A stretch of 64,000 bases of DNA, from contig NC_081374.1 in assembly GCF_030684315.1 (NCBI RefSeq), positions 5,393,937 to 5,457,936 on the forward strand. The letters run 5' to 3'. Origin of the DNA: Stegostoma tigrinum. Taxonomy: Eukaryota. Shown here piece by piece: positions 2,417 to 64,000 of the stretch (position 1 is its first letter; every line of letters starts with the position of its first letter). The position numbers and the translations under genes are program-made. The notes under the pieces are model-generated. The model made no database searches. It saw only the letters and a list, made by a program, of their open reading frames with translations, and was not told where the DNA came from.

Positions 2417-2548
2417 GCCTCCGGTGAAGGCTGGTGTTATGTCCCGCTTTCTATTTATCTGTTTAGGTTTCCTTGGGTTGGTGATGGTGATGGGTTGGTA
2501 AACAGATAAATAGAAAGCGGGACATAACACCAACGCTTCACCGGAGGC

Positions 2549-2588
2549 TCACTGATGATGTTACCTAGAATGGTGACGAAACGTCTGA
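2549..2588 (+). ncRNA. Minimal hammerhead ribozyme motif (family B)
   Basis: CTGATGA at 2552-2558; 6-bp stem II GTTACC/GGTGAC (one G-U); GAAAC; GTC triplet at 2583-2585; 3-bp stem I TCA/TGA. Confidence 0.8.
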
Positions 2589-2754
2589 AAACTAACCTTC
2601 CAGCTCAGCGAGCAAACTCACATCCAGAAGCTTAACCTGAGCTACAAATCTTCTCAAAACTTGCTAGATAAATTTTGGCCTTGCCACCGTCTCCTACTCT
2701 TTTTTCAAAATGTTGTCATATCATCTTTATATCACCAAAATGGACATAGTGATG

Positions 2755-6836: not shown

Positions 6837-7705
6837 TATTGCCTTTTATTGACTAATTTGCATGTTTCAGAATTAGGATGATTTCAGCGTTACAGGGTCT
6901 TTCAGTTGCAGTAGTGTAAGAGAATTGAGAGATGTATCATTGCTGACGGTATATCAGCATTGGAAATGTATTAGCGTTGAGTTGGCCCAGTGTTTTATGG
7001 TTTGGGGCATACCAGTGGGAAGGTTCATTCAGTGGGAAGATATATCATTGTTTGAGGTTTACCAGTGATATGGGGATTATCAGTGTTCTGGGGTGTCTCA
7101 GTGTTTTATTGCAGGGATGTATCAGTGTCTCAGACAGAATGGCAATGGATGGGGCTCAAGGCATAAGCAAGATGAAGATTCTGCTAGGACTAAGACTAAA
7201 TAAAAGCAAGTAACCATATTCTACTTGGTTAAGGTGAGTCTGGGAAGCTCAGGCCCATGATTTACACATCTCGCAATCTGTGCAAAATCCTACCTCCTCT
7301 TGGAGATCAGGATGACCTTGTGCAGAGGTCCCTCCAGCAGGAGCAACTCAAACTCTGAAGTTTGGAGCTTGTGCAGCTGCTGGGGCACAACGGTGTATTG
7401 ATGAAGGGCTGAGAGGTTGGTGGACAGCACAAACATCGCCAACCCACAGATTAAAGATACGTAGAGAATGGGAATGGGGAACTCCAGTCAGAAGCTCCAG
7501 GTAGGTTGTGAGGGAATCATCCAAGTACATTCTATTTGCAAAATGCTGTTCAGTCCTGCAAATTAGTGAGAATGACGGTTCCTCTGTTGAGGCCTGTCAG
7601 AGCCAAGGCGTGGGTGGGGTAGGGGAGGGTGGAGTGGGGAAAGGCAATAGTGGGAGGGGATTTATTAGTTTCATAAAGGATTTTAATGAACCAATTATTA
7701 AGTGG

Positions 7706-7848
7706 TAATGGGAACTGCAGATGCTGGAGAATCCAAGATAATAAAATGTGAGGCTGGATGAACACAGCAGGCCCAGCAGCATCTCAGGAGCACAAAAGCT
7801 TTTGTGCTCCTGAGATGCTGCTGGGCCTGCTGTGTTCATCCAGCCTCA
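7706..7848. mobile_element. Fold-back PLE terminal-repeat insertion, family A (no spacer)
   Basis: Perfect palindrome centred on AGCT 7797-7800; 14-bp TSD CAATTATTAAGTGG at 7692-7705 and 7849-7862. Confidence 0.9.
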
Positions 7849-8901
7849 CAATTATTAAGTGGGATAGTTTTAGTGTTCAAGGCAGAGAGGGAACAAAATT
7901 CTTAAATTGTATCAAGGGGCACTTTTTTTAAACTGGTGCAATGGAACCCAATAAGGAAAGGCCTTGATATCGTGGGCGCAGGTGGAAGGTGTATCAGTTA
8001 GGGGGATCTTTCAGAAATAGTGACCATAACTTAGTTACATGTAGGATGGTAATGGAAAAGGATAAGGATGGGCTAAGAAGGAAACCTATAACCTGGTTAA
8101 GGCTAAGTTTACTAAGATAAGACATAACTTGGCCCAAGTAGTCTCAGAACACCTACTTGCAGATAAATCTATCAAAGCAGTGGAAGATATTCAAGGGGGG
8201 AGCAGGAGTACGGGGAAAATATGTTTCTGTAAAGAGAAAGTGTAGGAGTAAAACAGCAGAGCTGTGGATGTGAGGAGTCATAAAGTTTAGGATTGAGAAG
8301 AAAGGAGAAGTTTATGTCAGATACCCAAGGCTCAGTACAGCAGAGTACCTAGACGATACAAAAAGTGCACGGGGTAATCTTCATCTTAAATGAGGACAGC
8401 AAGCAGAGTTAATGAGAAAATAGAATAAAGGAAAACCCAAATGATTAAAAAAAATATATATATAAAGAGCAAAAATAGGAGAATCTTGGGTAATTGGGAA
8501 AACACAAGGAAGTGCACCTGTGGAATGTTGGACTAATCAAGAGCTGTTTAAATTGTGGAGGAGGCCTGAGGGGCTGAATGGCCTATTCCTGTTCCTGTTT
8601 TTTATTGTATTATGGAAAGTAAATAGGTAAAGATATGGTCCATTAGGAATCATAGAGGAAATGTGTGTGTGGATCTGGGAGATATGGGCCCAGTTCTCAG
8701 TAAATGTTTTGCATCAGTCTTTACAGTGGAAAAGAATGATGCAGGTATAGACATCAAAGTGGACGATTATGAAATATTAGAAGAAATTAACATTTAGAGA
8801 AAGGAAGTACTGGTGGCTTTAGTAGCTTTACGAATAGATACATTCACAAACCTGTTTGAAACATATCCCAGGCTGTTAAGGGTTCAAAGGGAGCAGATAT
8901 C

Positions 8902-9033
8902 AGCTCACTGATGAAGGGTCTAGGCCCAAAACATCAGCTTTTGTGCTCCTGAGATGCTGCTTGGCCTGCTGTGTTCATCCAGCTCCACACTTTGTTATCT
9001 CGGATTCTCCAGCATCTGCAGCTCCCATTATCT
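8902..9033 (+). mobile_element. Solo PLE terminal repeat, family A
   Basis: 8-bp TSD CAGATATC at 8894-8901 and 9034-9041; hammerhead core decayed (GAAACGTC to AAAACATC); interrupts the CR1. Confidence 0.85.
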
Positions 9034-24668: not shown

Positions 24669-24895
24669 ATAAATGGGAACTGCAGATGCTGGAGAATCCA
24701 AGATAATAAAGTGTGAAGCTGGATGAACACAGCAGGCCAGGCAGCATCTCAGGAGCACAAAAGCTGACGTTTCGGGCCTAGACCCTTCATCCGAGAGCAT
24801 CTCTGATGAAGGGTCTAGGCCTGAAACGTCAGCTTTTGTGCTCCTGAGATGCTGCTTGGCCTGCTGTGTTCACCCAGCTTCACACTTTATTATCT
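24669..24895. mobile_element. Palindromic PLE terminal-repeat insertion, family A
   Basis: Perfect 15-bp TSD AAGAAAGCAAATCAG at 24654-24668 and 24896-24910; + strand hammerhead core intact at 24803-24830. Confidence 0.9.
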
Positions 24896-40045: not shown

Positions 40046-40280
40046 GAGAGATAATGGGAACTGCAGATGCTGGAGAATTCCAAGATAATAAAATGTGAGG
40101 CTGGATGAACACAGCAGGCCAAGCAGCATCTCGGGAGCACAAAAGCTGACGTTTCGGGCTTAGACCCTTCATCAGAGACTCTCCCCATCCCCCTCTCTGA
40201 TGAAGGGTCTAGGCCCGACACGTCAGCTTTTGTGCTCCTGAGATGCTGCTTGGCCTGCTGTGTTCATCCAGCCTCACATT
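40046..40280. mobile_element. Palindromic PLE terminal-repeat insertion, family A
   Basis: Perfect 16-bp TSD TTAAATTCAGTGGGGA at 40030-40045 and 40281-40296. Minus-strand hammerhead intact (40146-40177); plus-strand copy has GAAA to GACA. Confidence 0.92.
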
Positions 40281-41436
40281 TTAAATTCAGTGGGGATCAT
40301 GTTTTGCATTATAACATGACCATTAGGAACAATTCCACGGATCTGTAGCAGCATACGTTGCTCATCTTTTGCGTAAGGAAGGACCTGGAATAATTCTTAC
40401 AGATGTATATTGTCTCCAATATGCAGTAGACTTAATATTCAAAGTATGAGTACATTTCCCTTTCCAACATTTGATGTTGATGATCTACAGGGTGTGGATT
40501 TGCCAATATTGCATGTTGACTGAGATTTGATTGTCGTTCTCTGCTTGAAGTGTGTCTTTTATTTCATAAAAGCCATTATGTTGTAAAATCAGAGAAACTG
40601 CACCAAAATTCAAAGTATTTGAAAACCACTTGGCATTCCTCCAAAGCAGTTCGGGTGTCTTATCAGTTTTTAAAGAACTTAACCCTTGAATTTTTTGTAT
40701 ATTCTGAGCCTAACTGGAATTACTTGATGATCAGCCACCAAAGAAAATTCCCAAATTCTCCTTGATGAAATGTAGCTGGCTCTGCAAAACCTGCTGTTGG
40801 GGAACAACAATAACACCAAGATTGGTCTGTGTAAAACATCTACAGACTTTGAGAGCAATATACTGTGGATGCTGGAAATCTGAAACAAGCACAGAAAATG
40901 CTGAAGAAACTGAGTAGGTCTCGCAACATCTGTGGATAGTTTGTGTTTTAAGCATGACCCTTCAGAAGCTGCTGAGTTTCTCTAGCATTTGTTTTAGCTA
41001 CAGTTTTTAAATGGCTGTACACAAACTGAAATTTAAGACATCAGGATGGGCAACCTCCTGCAAGACTTCAAGCTCTTAATTTAATCTGGAAATCTGGAGC
41101 ATAGTGAAATATCCGGGCTGGGATACAGCTTTTGAGCTATATTTTGGGAATCTCCTCTTTTGTGTGTAATCATTTTTTCTTTGACATTGGCAAGGTTAGC
41201 ACAAGGAAAACCTTTCTGAGTGGGGAGGAAGAGGGAGTAAATAACTTAATTATTTCTAAACCTTCCTGTTGTACAATTTGAAAATTTGCATTGACTTCAA
41301 ATGCATTCTCAGTTTGAGATGAGTTTCTTTTGCACGTGGAAGCTTTGAGGTGTAAATGACCTACCTGTTTGAGGTACAGGATTATAATATAATAAACTTA
41401 TCACTGTACTTGGTACATATGACAATAAACCAAACT

Positions 41437-41993
41437 TTCTTTAAAGTGTAGGACCCTTCAACAAAAAGCAATGGGCATGCTACCTGATCTGGTGCAATTA
41501 CTCTTGTGCAGATATAAAATCTTTCCAAAAATTGTCTAAAATGGTCCAAGTACTGAAATAGTGTCCCCAGTACTAAATGGTAATTGCTACTCAAATAGTC
41601 CCACTTTAAATGTGCAATTCCAGATTGTTTCCCCATTTTAAAATGAATGAAGGTACCATGAATTTCAGATGCTGTAGTCAGACAACACAATGTGGAGCTG
41701 GAGAACTCAGCAGGTCAGGCAGCATCAGAGGAGTAGGATGAAGGGTCCCAACCTGAAATGTTGACTTTCCTACTCTGTTGCATGACCTGTGTTCCTGCAG
41801 CTCCACACTGACTTTAAAATGATCGAGTTGTGTTGTCTGTTAATATTGCCCCTTTAATACTAGGGATACTATTTCAGTACTTGGACCATTTTACAAAATC
41901 TTTCCAAAAATTGTCTATCTGCACAAGAGTAACTGCACCAGATCAGATAGCATTCCCATTGCTTTTTGTTGAAGGGTCCTACACTTTTTTAAA
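41437..41993. repeat. ~150-bp imperfect inverted repeat flanking an old PLE terminal-repeat palindrome (~41680-41812)
   Basis: AAAGTGTAGGACCCTTCAACAAAAAGCAATGGG... is the reverse complement of ...CCCATTGCTTTTTGTTGAAGGGTCCTACACTTT. Confidence 0.85.
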
Positions 41994-44199: not shown

Positions 44200-44419
44200 A
44201 GATAATAAAATGTGAGGCTGGATGAACACAGCAGGCCAAGCAGCATCTCAGGAGCACAAAAGCTGACGTTTCGGGCCTAGACCCTTCATCAGAGAAATCG
44301 TGCAACTGTGTTGGGCAGTGCAGCCCAGCCAACATAAGAGGAAACCACACTTCAACCACCTTGAAAAACAAACTTAACACTGGGTTTCAAACAGGAAGTG
44401 CTGAACACTAATTCCCGAG
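44200..44419 (-). mobile_element. PLE terminal repeat fused to an inverted copy of local DNA
   Basis: 10-bp TSD AAATACTCCT at 44190-44199 and 44420-44429; 44200-44294 is the family A repeat; 44292-44424 is the reverse complement of 44548-44680. Confidence 0.9.
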
Positions 44420-45246
44420 AAATACTCCTTCCAGCTGGTCTGCATCGGGTCTGAGTGCACTTCTACTGTAGTTGTATGTGATGTTCAGCACTGATGTAGT
44501 TGAGATTTTTTTGTATTTATTCACTTCCTCATTGGCTACCCAAGCATTATTTCTCAGGAATTAGTGTTCAGCACTTCCTGTTTGAAACCCAGTGTTAAGT
44601 TTGTTTTTCAAGGTGGTTGAAGTGTGGTTTCCTCTTATGTTGGCTGGGCTGCACTGCCCAACACAGTTGCACGATTTCTCACTAGCTAAGCCTTGAGCAA
44701 TAACATACTGTGATTAGAGTGTGATAAAAGTTATGCAATGTTTCCTTTTAATCATCTTGCAAACAGATTAAGTTGCATAGACTTTGGAGTCTTGTCTATT
44801 TTAAGTTTCAGTAGTAAATCTGCTGTAGTTTTTGTCGATCAGTGTCATTAAAATGCTAATAGTAGGACTATGAAATAATAGTTTGAAGGGTGTGAAAAGT
44901 GCTGAGCAATAGAATTAGCCGAGGTGGGAGTAGGTGGAAATGCAAACTTAGACTCGTGTCATAGATTAGTCGTCATCATCTTTGGTGTAGCAGACATGGG
45001 CTGGTAAACTGCCACTCTAGGGTCTTGTGCTTATAATCCCACAAAGGCATCCTCAATTTCTATTGTTTCCTTGTCAGTTGGGAAGAAAAATGGATCACGT
45101 CTTTCAGTGACTTAAGTTTTTGTGCTGATGATAAGGAAAAGAGTCAAGGTCAGATTTACAAACTTTGTAACACTGCAATGGCACTTGCATTGCTCATGTG
45201 CCAAATGTACACAATATATCATGAAACTGGCTCTTCAGGTTATTTG

Positions 45247-45447
45247 TGATAATGGGAACTGCAGATGCTGGAGAATCCAAGATAATAATAAAATGTGAGG
45301 CTGGATGAACCCAGCAGCATCTCAGGAGCACAAAAGCTGATGTTTCGGGCCTAGACCCTGATGAAGGGTCGAGGCCCGACACGTCAGCTTTTGTGCTCCT
45401 GAGATGCTGCTGGGCCTGCTGTGTTCATCCAGTGCCTCATTTTATTA
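45247..45447. mobile_element. Palindromic PLE terminal-repeat insertion, family A
   Basis: Perfect 15-bp TSD TCTTCAGGTTATTTG at 45232-45246 and 45448-45462. Confidence 0.9.
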
Positions 45448-45536: not shown

Positions 45537-47266
45537 ACAAAGGGGGTGGCTATGGGTACCTGCATGGGCTCCAAGTTATGCCTGCCTCTTTGTAGGATAC
45601 GTAGAACAATCCCTTTTCCAAAGCTACACTGGCCCTATCCCCTTTCTCTCGCTCTGTTACGTTGACTGTTTTGGCACCGCCTCCTGTTCCCACGAGGTGC
45701 CTGAACAATTCACCCACTTCACCAACACCTTCCACCCCAACCTCAAGTTCACCTGGACCATTTCTGATACCCCTCTCTCCTTTCTGGACCCCTCTGTCTC
45801 CATTTCTGGCATCCACCTGGAAACGGATATTGATTTTAAGCCTATCGACTCCCTCAGCTACCTAGAATACATCTCCTCTCACCCACCTTCCTGCAAAAAG
45901 GCCTTCCCCTATTCCCAATTCCTTTGCCTCCGCTGCATCTGCTCCTGAGATGAGGCATTCCACTCCCACACATCCCCAGATGTCATCTCCTCCTCTGCCC
46001 GCCTGCCCCCCCCCCCCAAGTAATTGAGAATACCCTAGACCGTGTCTCCCGCAACTCATCCCTCACCCCCTCTCCGCAATAATGACAAACGATCCCCCTC
46101 ATTCTCACGTACCACCCCACCAACCTCCAAATCCAACGCATCACCCTCCGACATTGCAGATGGTGGAAATCTGACCCCACTGCTAAAGACAATTTTCTCC
46201 CTCCCCACTCTTTTTTTTGTGCTTTCCGGAGGGACCACTTTCTCTGTGACTCCTTTGTCTGCTCTACACCCCTCCACCCCCACCACCTGTTACTTTTCCC
46301 TGCAACCAAAGTATTTACTACACNNNNNNNNNNNNNNNNNNNNNNNNNNNNNNNNNNNNNNNNNNNNNNNNNNNNNNNNNNNNNNNNNNNNNNNNNNNNN
46401 NNNNNNNNNNNNNNNNNNNNNNNNNNNNNNNNNNNNNNNNNNNNNNNNNNNNNNNNNNNNNNNNNNNNNNNNNNNNNNNNNNNNNNNNNNNNNNNNNNNN
46501 NNNNNNNNNNNNNNNNNNNNNNNNNNNNNNNNNNNNNNNNNNNNNNNNNNNNNNNNNNNNNNNNNNNNNNNNNNNNNNNNNNNNGCACGTCTGCCAATGT
46601 GGTATAAGGTATCCACTGCCCCTGCCTGTAGCCTCCTCTACATTGGGGAAAACCAAGTGGTGGCTTGGACAGCTTTACAGAACACCTATGCTCAGTTCGC
46701 AACAACCAACTACACCTCCCAGTTGTGAACCATTCCTCTCTCTGCACCCCCCCGCCCTGACTCCAGGCAACATGTCCATCCTGGGCCTCCTGCATTGCCA
46801 CAATGATGCCACCCCACAGATGCTGGAACAGCAACTCATTTCACTTTGATACACTAGGGCTGCGGAGTTGCCATGTAGACTTCATAAGCTTCAAAATCTC
46901 CCCTCCCACGTCTGCATCCCAAAACCCAGCTCAGTTAGTCCCTGCCTCCCCAACCATTCTTCCCACCTCAAGCCCGACCCACTAACCTCATCCTGCCTCC
47001 CTGGACCGACCTATCCCTCCCCAACTCCCCACCTGCATTCACATTCACTGGCTGTAAGCCTGCATCCTTTGACATGTCTGTCTCCTTTCACCCTATCTTC
47101 TTTTTTATCCATCTTCTATCCGCCTCCCCCTGTCTCCCTATTTTTCAGAATCCCCTTCCCCTCCTGCATTTTTTGTTGAAGAATGGTCTCACCCAGAACC
47201 GTCAACTTTACTGCTCCTCTGCAGCTTGGCCTACTGTGTTCCTCCACCTTCACACCTTGTTATCTC
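45537..47266 (+). mobile_element. Decayed Penelope-like element (RT + GIY-YIG + terminal repeat)
   Basis: KGVAMGTCMG, FTNTFHPNLKFTW..LSFLD, YLEYISSHPPSCKKAFPYSQF, LLYIGE, MSILGLLHCHNDAT; diverged terminal repeat at ~47175-47266. Confidence 0.9.
46324..46584. other. Assembly gap (261 N)
   Basis: Run of N inside the PLE. Confidence 1.
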
Positions 47267-61470: not shown

Positions 61471-63563
61471 CCCTTTTTTAAGATCTGAATAAAAATCAAT
61501 TTTTTTGATTAACTTCCCAAGCAACCAACTGATTAAAAGACAATGTTTTAAAACTGTAGGTTGCTTTGTAAAAAGGCAAAGCAACTAAGACATTTTAAAC
61601 AAAAAAGTACTTTTGCAGTGACTAGCACTATCAAAATGTGCCTTAACCTCTTACTGTGTCCTACATTTCAGGCGGTTGTGGCATTAAAAAAAAAATTCCA
61701 ATGTCCTTGGCTCACTTCACGTTGTCCTAGGTTGCAATTTCAAGTGTCCTTCCACTTGGCCTGAGTCTCCTAGGTTATAATCATGAGAAAGGCCTCCCTT
61801 AGTATACCTTTAGTCCTTGAATCCTCAGTAGTCCCACTTCTTTGTTCTGTCCTCTTCTGAAGGAAAAAACATTCCTGCAAACACTCTGGTTCATCACAAT
61901 ATCATCTACATTGTCTCAAAAGTAACAGTGCCTTCTACAACGCTCCTGATTTCTCCATCAGTTTTTAAATTCATGACCACCTTCTGAGTTTATACACCAA
62001 AGAAAGTGGTGATTCCTTCATCCCTCTGCCTTCGAAGCTTCTTTCAAATGGCAGATTTTTTTAAAAATCGCAAAATGCTTTCAAGTTTTACTATCCGTCA
62101 CTAAATCTTGTGGTCTTTGTTTTAATGGAGGTGGTGGGGGAGAGACTCTAGATACTAAGACTACGGGGATTTTCCCATCCTTGGTTAACCAGTCCAATTC
62201 AGTGCTTGTCTCTTGCATTGGAGTCCCTACAGCTGTGTACTGCAGTCCTTTTGACCTTGTTCTGTACATAGTGGTCATCACACCTTTACATTAAACACTC
62301 CTATTTAAAAATCACCAGATTTTGTTGTCTTTTCTGTGGTTTTAACTACTGTATTCCCTACAGATTTACTCCCACTGGTTATTTTCACGCATTTCCTTAT
62401 CTTTCCACTGAGTGTCTTCCCATTCTGGCAAGAATAATGAAATGCTAATAGCCTAGAAGAGTGGAGACCACTCATACTCTTGAGTATTAACCTGGCTTCT
62501 GTTGACTGACTAGTATTTGGTCTTATGCACATGAGTATATTAATTCCAAAACCTTAGCCTGTTGTCCAAATGACCTTTTGCAAAGATTCTGCTTTTAAAA
62601 TTACTATCAAACAAATGTTAAAACATTTATGCAATGCTTCTATGAAGTGGTGTCCTGGTAGCAATTTCTTCAGAGTTCCTGTGTAGTGGAACATGGAGTA
62701 ATGCCATTGCATTCATAAAGCTGTTTTTTAAAAAAAAATGCTTGTTCAGTGCCACAGCCATTGTAATGATCATGTTCACAGCTTTTCCCCATTTCCTTTG
62801 AACAGTCATTGGCTGGTTCAGCAACAGTGTACACCAGTGCATTACTCTTGCAAATGTAGTGTCCCTTCCTTTTTGAAAAAGATATTAGCTCATGCTCAGC
62901 TGTGCTGTCATGTCCAGATTACCCAGAGTAAGTCAGCCATTTCACTTCTTAGCATGTTTGCTGGTTTTATTTCCCTTGTGAAAACTGCAAATCAGTGACC
63001 TTGCTGATACTAAAATTCCTTTTTTCTAATACGAATATGACTTGAGACAGTTGGGCATTTTTTTACAAAATGTCCTGTGATATTTTTGTTTAAGAAAGGA
63101 AATTACTAAATAGTTCCAGTATGAACAGTACATAGAGGATGTTAAATAGTATCTTCAAGTCAGTGACTGTATGCTGTTAAAACCCTTTTTTAATATGGTT
63201 CTGTTGCATATTCACAAATCCAGAATAATGGAGGAACTCTGGGTCTGGCAGCACATGTGGAGAGAAATAGTTGGCATTTCAAGTGTGGTATGACTTCAGT
63301 TCTTCGCAATGAGCAGTGGGGACTGAAGTATACTTTTGCCAAGCCCATTTTAGCTGCCTAAACTATTTTCCAAGTTCAGGTGTAGAAATCTACCAGTGCA
63401 ACTAGTTCTGCCATGATCCATCTATACATGTAACAATTTTTCATCTTTCAAGAGATGAAGACATGGCCAAGCATACATTTGCCTTTGTTTCTGTAATTTA
63501 GAGCCTTATTCAGATTTACAGATTCCATTGTTTTTAACACTTGAGCCATTGGTATTTGTAAAT

Positions 63564-63722
63564 GAGATAATGGGAACTGCAGATGCTGGAGAATCCAAGA
63601 CAACAAAGTGTGAAGCTGGATGAACACAGCAGGCCAAGCAGCATCTCAGGAGCACAAAAGCTTTTGTGCTCCTGAGATGCTGCTTGGCCTGCTGTGTTCA
63701 TCCAGCTTCATACTTTGTTGTC
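63564..63722. mobile_element. Fold-back PLE terminal-repeat insertion, family A (no spacer)
   Basis: Palindrome centred on AGCT 63659-63662; perfect 15-bp TSD TTGGTATTTGTAAAT at 63549-63563 and 63723-63737. Confidence 0.92.
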
Positions 63723-64000
63723 TTGGTATTTGTAAATAGCCAGTTGAGCTGACACTTTTCTTTGGACCTTACCAGAAATAAACACCCATTCTTGTTCCTC
63801 TTCCTTTTTAATTGTGGAAGGTATAGAAGTTCGTTGTACATCAAATCTGAAGCAATATTCCAAGAATGTGTTGCTGTACCAAGTGGTAGAATTGGCAGGC
63901 CTAAGTTGACATTGTCACATGAAAACAGGCTATTTAGCCCACCTGTTTTGAACCAATATTTATGCTGCAATTTGGTCTCCTCTCCTCCTTCATTGTCATA

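Follow-up and report, generated by a model that had tools for sequence, protein, structure and literature searches.

The class of element considered here, the inverted shape of its copies, and its ribozyme motif are already known, as is the reading of a ribozyme cut from genomic junctions, a case made for R2 (PMC3774820). As described for metazoan Penelope-like elements (PLEs), minimal hammerhead ribozymes have the same CUGANGA and GAAA boxes and the same location in the pLTR as the motif analyzed below; also as here, they lack loop 3, with a palindromic ACGU, and have a short helix I (Cervera and De la Pena 2014; PMC4209133). In the D. virilis PLE hammerhead, helix I is also 2 bp long (PMC4209133). 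In these accounts, the minimal hammerheads of PLEs cleave poorly in vitro, and evidence for activity in vivo is not described (PMC4209133, PMC11167929). The protein of the Poseidon element PAc from Anolis carolinensis nicks both strands of the target and extends each, begins at two internal sites, and helps the element's hammerhead in vitro; the same account describes no RNA-seq reads ending at the cut and finds cleavage dispensable in vitro (PMC11167929).

Structure of the insert and identity of the element

The window, a stretch of 64 kb, contains a 143-base insert at 7706-7848 composed of the pLTR end of a Neptune-type PLE joined head to head. We numbered the element so that the A of AGCT, directly after the predicted hammerhead cut (marked by a slash below), is position 0. 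The arms (7744-7798 and 7799-7853) are 98% complementary with no spacer, and the symmetry axis lies between 7798 and 7799, inside CACAAAAGCTTTTGTG (7791-7806). The initial annotation placed the fold-back axis at the AGCT of the predicted cut, with the ribozyme core absent, and pointed to an insert at 63564 with the same axis; both observations were borne out (Table 1). In the window, intact copies have the sequence CTGATGA-AGGGTCTAGGCCC-GAAACGTC/AGCTTTTGTG, and the CTGATGA..GAAAC core is absent from both palindromic inserts. A family A arm that keeps the core served as the reference for what the palindromes are missing, and family B, in which the site is TGAA, as the nonpalindromic control.

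Table 1. Positions of the palindromic insertions and reference arms in the window
Feature	Positions	Strand	Remark
Left target-site duplication copy, 14 bp, CAATTATTAAGTGG	7692-7705	+	Empty site in relative
Long arm, pLTR position 0 to ~+94, including one-sided tail (~7706-7743)	7706-7800	-	
AGCT common to both arms, first four bases past the predicted GUC cut	7797-7800	.	
Short arm, pLTR position 0 to ~+51 (inner reverse-transcription start zone)	7797-7848	+	
Right target-site duplication copy, 14 bp, CAATTATTAAGTGG	7849-7862	+	Empty site in relative
Second, independent insertion, same axis (AGCT 63659-63662)	63564-63722	.	
15-bp duplication TTGGTATTTGTAAAT around the second insertion	63549-63563 / 63723-63737		
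Family A arm keeping the minimal hammerhead core (CTGATGA, stem II, GAAACGTC/AGCT), predicted cut before 24831	24801-24895	+	
Family B arm with minimal hammerhead (GAAACGTC/TGAA), predicted cut before 2586	2536-2628	+	

Both inserts have the marks of insertion events. At the first locus, a contig of a related organism runs from 7691 straight into 7849. Direct repeats of at least 8 nt flank the outer ends of 13 of the 17 palindromes checked, with duplications of 8 to 21 nt. The arms are unequal: the short ones stop between about +46 and +65, the long ones between about +93 and +104. Over 48 bases at 16 loci, the two arms of one palindrome differ by a mean of 1.1 positions, vs 2.3 between loci, and subfamily and rare variants are common to both arms, suggesting a common origin in a single RNA or source locus, or later homogenization. 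Intramolecular snap-back, which the initial annotation had offered, was rejected as unlikely: AGCT without a loop cannot form a hairpin, and the second arm stops in the inner start zone. Since the arms end in two zones, mostly with target duplications, they fit two separate priming events.

Long copies, found in a 1.19-Mb genome sample, reach more than 2 kb upstream and encode pieces of a reverse transcriptase (RT) and a GIY-YIG endonuclease. Two of three open reading frame pieces matched Pfam RVT_1 (E = 0.0037) and GIY-YIG (E = 0.0025), both matches being weak, under Pfam's curated cutoffs. Translations contain QTKGVAMG, RYIDD, VVYCIHCTRCGFLYIGET, and two later His residues, as in a CCHH-type endonuclease. 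An RT followed by a C-terminal GIY-YIG endonuclease with CCHH is the arrangement of endonuclease-bearing PLEs, and the pLTR, inverted 5'-truncated copy, tail of 30 to 40 nt, and target duplication are likewise those of PLEs. A CX2-5CxxC linker between RT and endonuclease defines the Neptune/Nematis clade (PMC8557442), and one long copy (L073) has CNRRKCYTC, a CX4CxxC linker, at this place; by motif, the element is thus a Neptune-type (or Nematis) PLE. The 3.2-Gb genome has 192,405 exact matches to a 20-mer from the end of the element. The 3' ends of the arms form two clusters ~40 nt apart, in agreement with the tail and the pair of reverse-transcription starts reported for Anolis PAc (PMC11167929).

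The candidate ribozyme has the sequence features of a minimal type I hammerhead: CUGANGA, stem II, GAAA, palindromic 15.2-16.2, and a UH triplet. In a 1.25-Mb sample, 68 intact copies (CTGATGA-AGGGTCTAGGCCC-GAAACGTC) have AGCTTTTG after the triplet. The predicted helix I is 2 bp long in family A (CU/AG) and reaches 3 bp in family B; in family A subfamilies with U at -30, it contains a G-U pair. Helix III of the minimal hammerhead needs a dimer. An Rfam scan of the 64-kb window gave 0 matches, hammerhead included, and in single-strand folding of the family A monomer, the hammerhead was not the minimum-energy fold; folding also placed an AGC-N6-GCU hairpin that starts exactly at position 0. A random sample contained at least two further, older hammerhead families, one with a GTT triplet followed by AACTCTG and a CTGCAA family related to family B.

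The window holds other repeats. Four head-to-head family A insertions (45310-45414, 24701-24895, 40089-40283, and 2752-2923) keep the core on both arms and join near -32 or further upstream. A 139-base inverted repeat (44292-44430 and 44542-44680; 98% complementary), with no match to the family A end, directly follows a family A arm with its end near -31, and a 138-base inverted repeat (41443-41580 and 41850-41987; 89% complementary) encloses an old family A stub. Positions 46324-46584 are a run of 261 N.

Junctions at the predicted cut

The insert at 7706-7848 is one of about a thousand mirror-image stubs that meet at the predicted cut base. In the 3.2-Gb genome, there are 709 exact matches to a 24-mer centered on AGCT and 0 to the reversed control pattern; a 24-mer centered on ACGT, four bases upstream, occurs 50 times with CpG decay allowed. 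In gapped searches, AGCT palindromes numbered 11 and ACGT palindromes 2 among the matches listed (50 of 5140), CTAG and upstream GGCC axes 1 each (50 of 6590 listed), and the downstream GGCC axis 1 (50 of 2189 listed). AGCT thus exceeds other palindromic 4-mers ~6- to 14-fold or more. These class tallies were made mostly by eye from the first 50 to 100 matches listed, mainly on the largest contigs. By a rough comparison of two different patterns (709 loci with two arms each vs 192,405 arms with the 20-mer), the palindromic mark is present on ~1% of arms, which makes uncut RNA the likely main template.

Assemblies are known to be prone to error at perfect palindromes. No raw read across the locus at 7706-7848 itself was seen, and none of the Logan contigs bridges it. 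However, assembly collapse or a read chimera has a negligible chance of being the explanation: the arms are unequal, 13 of 17 palindromes have target duplications, the empty site in the relative has matching ends, and neighboring palindromes with long centers were assembled normally. Unitigs from three short-read runs (X1, X2, and X3) of two samples also span the axis; with 5 to 7 differences, they represent sister loci rather than 7706-7848. A search of sequencing runs listed no RNA run with the sequence, a result that has no bearing on expression.

AGCT could also be mere 4-nt microhomology that joined two cDNAs, or the center could have been deleted by slippage between AGCT copies. Many head-to-head junctions of the family use 2 to 4 nt of microhomology, perfect palindromes exist at ACGT, CTAG, GGCC, and TA axes as well, and the history of any single locus, 7706-7848 included, is unreadable from the data. 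Yet the excess of AGCT over other palindromic 4-mers remains, and it is absent from the older TTTCC subfamily, where GTCAGCTTT is identical and slippage has had more time to act: among the matches listed (50 of 228), AGCT palindromes numbered 2 and ACGT-type palindromes 3 to 4. The difference between young copies (11/50) and the TTTCC subfamily (2/50) has a p value of 0.015 among the matches listed. Because other axes are rare and the older subfamily has no excess, neither slippage nor plain microhomology explains the excess at AGCT.

Head-to-tail junctions bear on the same point. A search for arm ends that run directly into the outer start of a further copy with the same orientation found 126 places; 100 of the 126 were listed and, by eye and with arrays collapsed, gave 79 loci. 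Of these listed loci, 35 end exactly at 0 with at most 1 base of microhomology, 9 are ambiguous between 0 and -3, 14 end at -16/-17 via short microhomology, 10 end at +6/+7, one each ends at +3, +2, +1, -6, -8, and -11, and 5 are complex. No AGCT lies across the junction in the class that ends at 0. In family B, three of six head-to-tail junctions end exactly at GTC/TGA, where the site is TGAA (p = 0.0013 against 24 equal positions); the outer-start search in this family gave one match, at +4. With ends at 0 that have no AGCT opposite, and with family B behaving likewise at TGAA, microhomology or slippage is largely refuted as a general cause and, as the origin of the insert, improbable. Thus, the two alternatives raised in the initial annotation, slippage and assembly collapse, both fail as general explanations.

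Older family A subfamilies with a complete core provide a further control. Among 100 listed head-to-tail rows, 3 clear cases (at most 6) stop at 0, while roughly half stop at -16/-17 via 3- to 4-nt microhomology, showing that sharp peaks can form without a cut. The -16/-17 hot spot, the main class in these subfamilies, lies inside stem II and uses TAGA/AGA microhomology (e.g., L286). Helix I strength (C at -30 in young copies, U in old ones) was considered as the cause of the contrast between young and old copies but does not account for it cleanly: 6 of 7 copies in the CTAA subfamily have U at -30, yet that subfamily accounts for 5 of the 35 listed loci at 0.

Many of these insertions are arrays; in 20 head-to-tail loci examined, single insertions hold 3 to 9 units. 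The first unit often begins at about +53 to +66 and later units at ~+103, +70, or +45. In some arrays (L275, L276, L278, and L283), the 5' end is nearly constant at 0 and the restart differs from unit to unit; in others (such as L279, L281, and L282), an identical restart is repeated, and in L279 and L280, the units are accompanied by an AGCT palindrome. A host duplication of 11 to 15 nt surrounds the whole array at 10 of the 20 loci (L277, L281-L285, and L291-L294). An RNA circle was rejected as the source only for arrays in which the restart changes from unit to unit. Insertion of new copies into old ones at 0 was rejected for the arrays checked, which have no upstream remainder beside ends at 0.

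Probable capped and uncapped ends, and solitary ends

Copying of a cap usually shows as a nontemplated G at a full-length 5' end. In a random sample, such a G precedes 12 of 14 arms that start at -32, ~30 bases below a TATTTAT box. Perfect -32/-32 palindromes, also AGCT centered, numbered 12 among the matches listed (50 of 4110). Head-to-tail junctions at -32/-30 (32 rows) are fewer than those at 0, and several carry a cap-derived C. The extra G and the palindromes at -32 indicate that RNA 5' ends leave a genomic record and that symmetric junctions mark them. The probable capped transcription start at -32/-30 lies four bases before the core; examples in the window are 8906-8912 and 40190-40200. 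The sample behind the -32 counts, 119 segments of 10 kb, was used for this start only, being too sparse at the cut (4/233 arms at 0); private variants of its reference copy gave false piles at -28 and -20, which were ignored.

Host-flanked ends at 0 differ in this respect. On the cDNA, they carry a C in 1 of 19 rows, with T in 10 and A in 8, so a cap-derived base occurs in 1/19 rows at 0 vs 12/14 at -32 (p = 3e-6). Lacking a cap base, ends at 0 point to an uncapped RNA end, such as hammerhead cleavage would leave. Position 0 could instead be a second transcription start, or a start at +2 could recreate the palindrome through its cap G. The TCAG that spans position 0 is similar to the initiator consensus, and the -32 start yields the same kind of AGCT-centered perfect palindrome, which shows that transcription starts do leave such marks. 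But the near absence of the cap-derived C at 0, a peak at 0 rather than +1, and the lack of a peak in the older subfamily, which has the same TCAGCT, make a start there very improbable; an uncapped start at 0 is possible.

With the same filter, 722 nonpalindromic ends fall at 0 vs 276 at +1 (~77% and ~79% genuine by eye), an enrichment of ~2.5-fold at the cut once intact arms with an indel or substitution and mutated AGCT palindromes are dropped; these counts are incomplete, as the filters exclude the junction classes AAAAGCT/CCTGAG and AAAAGCT/CTCTGATG (slash, junction). A profile made by eye has 15 ends at 0 vs 0 to 12 elsewhere, with CpG positions pooled at -3 and the filter edge at -9. In the AGCC subfamily, whose site is not palindromic, 11 of 100 listed rows end at 0, with 6 at +1, 2 at -1, 1 at -2, 5 to 6 at -3, and ~11 each at +2 and +3, half of the latter belonging to one microhomology class. 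The end is blurred in 5 of 6 solo ends with a target duplication, where the duplication overlaps the last 1 to 2 arm bases, and 6 of 100 listed rows ending at 0 are better accounted for by the partner's end. In one case (C2:74980726-74980775), three telomere-like TAACCC units connect an arm that ends at the cut with its partner.

The initial annotation proposed that solo copies would peak at AGCT and, in family B, at GTC/TGA. The former is present, modest and blurred; the latter did not materialize. Among the family B matches listed (100 of 380), 4 to 5 ordinary ends fall at 0, with 0 to 8 at neighboring positions, and there is no fold-back at 0. This tally left out a recurrent form of ~17 rows (e.g., L194, L196, and L206) in which homology ends near -13 and is followed by a T run and ATTTGAAAA, possibly a nonautonomous subfamily with its own 5' end.

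A sharp uncapped end can also be envisaged on uncut RNA, if the RT stops at A0 at the boundary of a folded or protein-bound ribozyme or if a 5'-3' exonuclease trims the RNA to a footprint. In telomerase, a boundary element limits template copying. A stop or trimming of this kind predicts uncapped sharp ends and repeated copying equally well, the AGC-N6-GCU hairpin begins at 0, and the -16/-17 hot spot in stem II represents stops unrelated to the cut. We nevertheless consider it rather unlikely: two families that differ in sequence downstream of the site both stop at precisely the scissile bond; because helix I takes in 0 and +1, a block would more simply sit at +2; and the older subfamily can form the same hairpin, yet has no excess.

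A proposed mechanism and its relation to known systems

We consider it likely, on the strength of the junction sequences, that the predicted hammerhead cuts in the animal and that the genomic junctions are its record. That cleavage is recorded in the genome had been put forward in the initial annotation; it draws support from the head-to-tail junctions and from the cap-G and older-subfamily controls, and less from the tests named there, which gave weak results. Against it count the missing peak of ordinary ends in family B, the -16/-17 hot spot, and the 0 matches in Rfam. The structure of the insert at 7706-7848, its target duplication and empty site, the identity of the element, and the excess of ends at 0 in three kinds of junction are shown by the sequences. 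For the origin of this insert, we think it probable that two cDNAs, each primed at the target, reached the end of a self-cleaved RNA and paired through AGCT.

In this mechanism, most transcripts would start capped at -32 or -30, just ahead of the ribozyme core, and a minority would be cut after GUC, leaving an uncapped end at A0. Both nicked target strands would prime on the RNA, one at ~+60 and one at ~+100, and both cDNAs would extend to the end of the template. Palindromes would arise when AGCT cDNA ends anneal and are filled in; arrays would arise when the enzyme reprimes at +45, +70, or ~+103 and copies the stretch anew, giving up to 9 units. Whether germ-line cutting by the hammerhead fixes a hard boundary on the template, so that the RT copies a stretch of ~100 bases repeatedly as in telomerase-like repeat addition, is to our minds an evenly balanced question. 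The arrays suggest that one template was copied again and again by an RT from the group closest to telomerase. If true, a retrotransposon would be adding repeats up to a boundary set by a ribozyme, with the record in about a thousand palindromes and in dozens of arrays. The ~190,000 young arms give base-level statistics of template ends, with the capped -32 start as a built-in control.

A literature search limited to main texts found no description of PLE insertion ends or arrays at a hammerhead cut, and a prior description is possible. The closest likeness in shape is to the inverted pLTRs described for PLEs, which have the same inverted 5'-truncated copy, one-sided tail of 30 to 40 bp, duplication, and junction palindrome (PMC8557442, PMC3846280). 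In those accounts, unlike here, the junction is not linked to a ribozyme cut, and one proposes self-priming on an antisense template (PMC3846280), whereas our data fit two target-primed cDNAs from sense RNA. PAc resembles the element here in its two internal RT starts bounding a tail, the extension of both target strands, and a protein-assisted hammerhead; it is a Poseidon element, in contrast to the Neptune/Nematis-type CX4CxxC linker found here, and the study, as far as its account goes, reports no genomic ends at the cut (PMC11167929).

Animal non-LTR retrozymes are alike in forming tandem repeats from PLE pLTRs, but each of their units, as described, holds a whole hammerhead, whereas units here start at the cut without the core (10.64898/2026.07.22.740005). 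The palindromes and arrays, which begin at 0, therefore fall outside that class. In R2, as here, genomic 5' junctions record a ribozyme cut (HDV-like in that case), run-off adds nontemplated bases, and template jumping is cited. The ribozyme and the element class are different, and the cut is the normal 5' end of R2 (PMC3774820), whereas in the element described here it marks a small minority of stubs.
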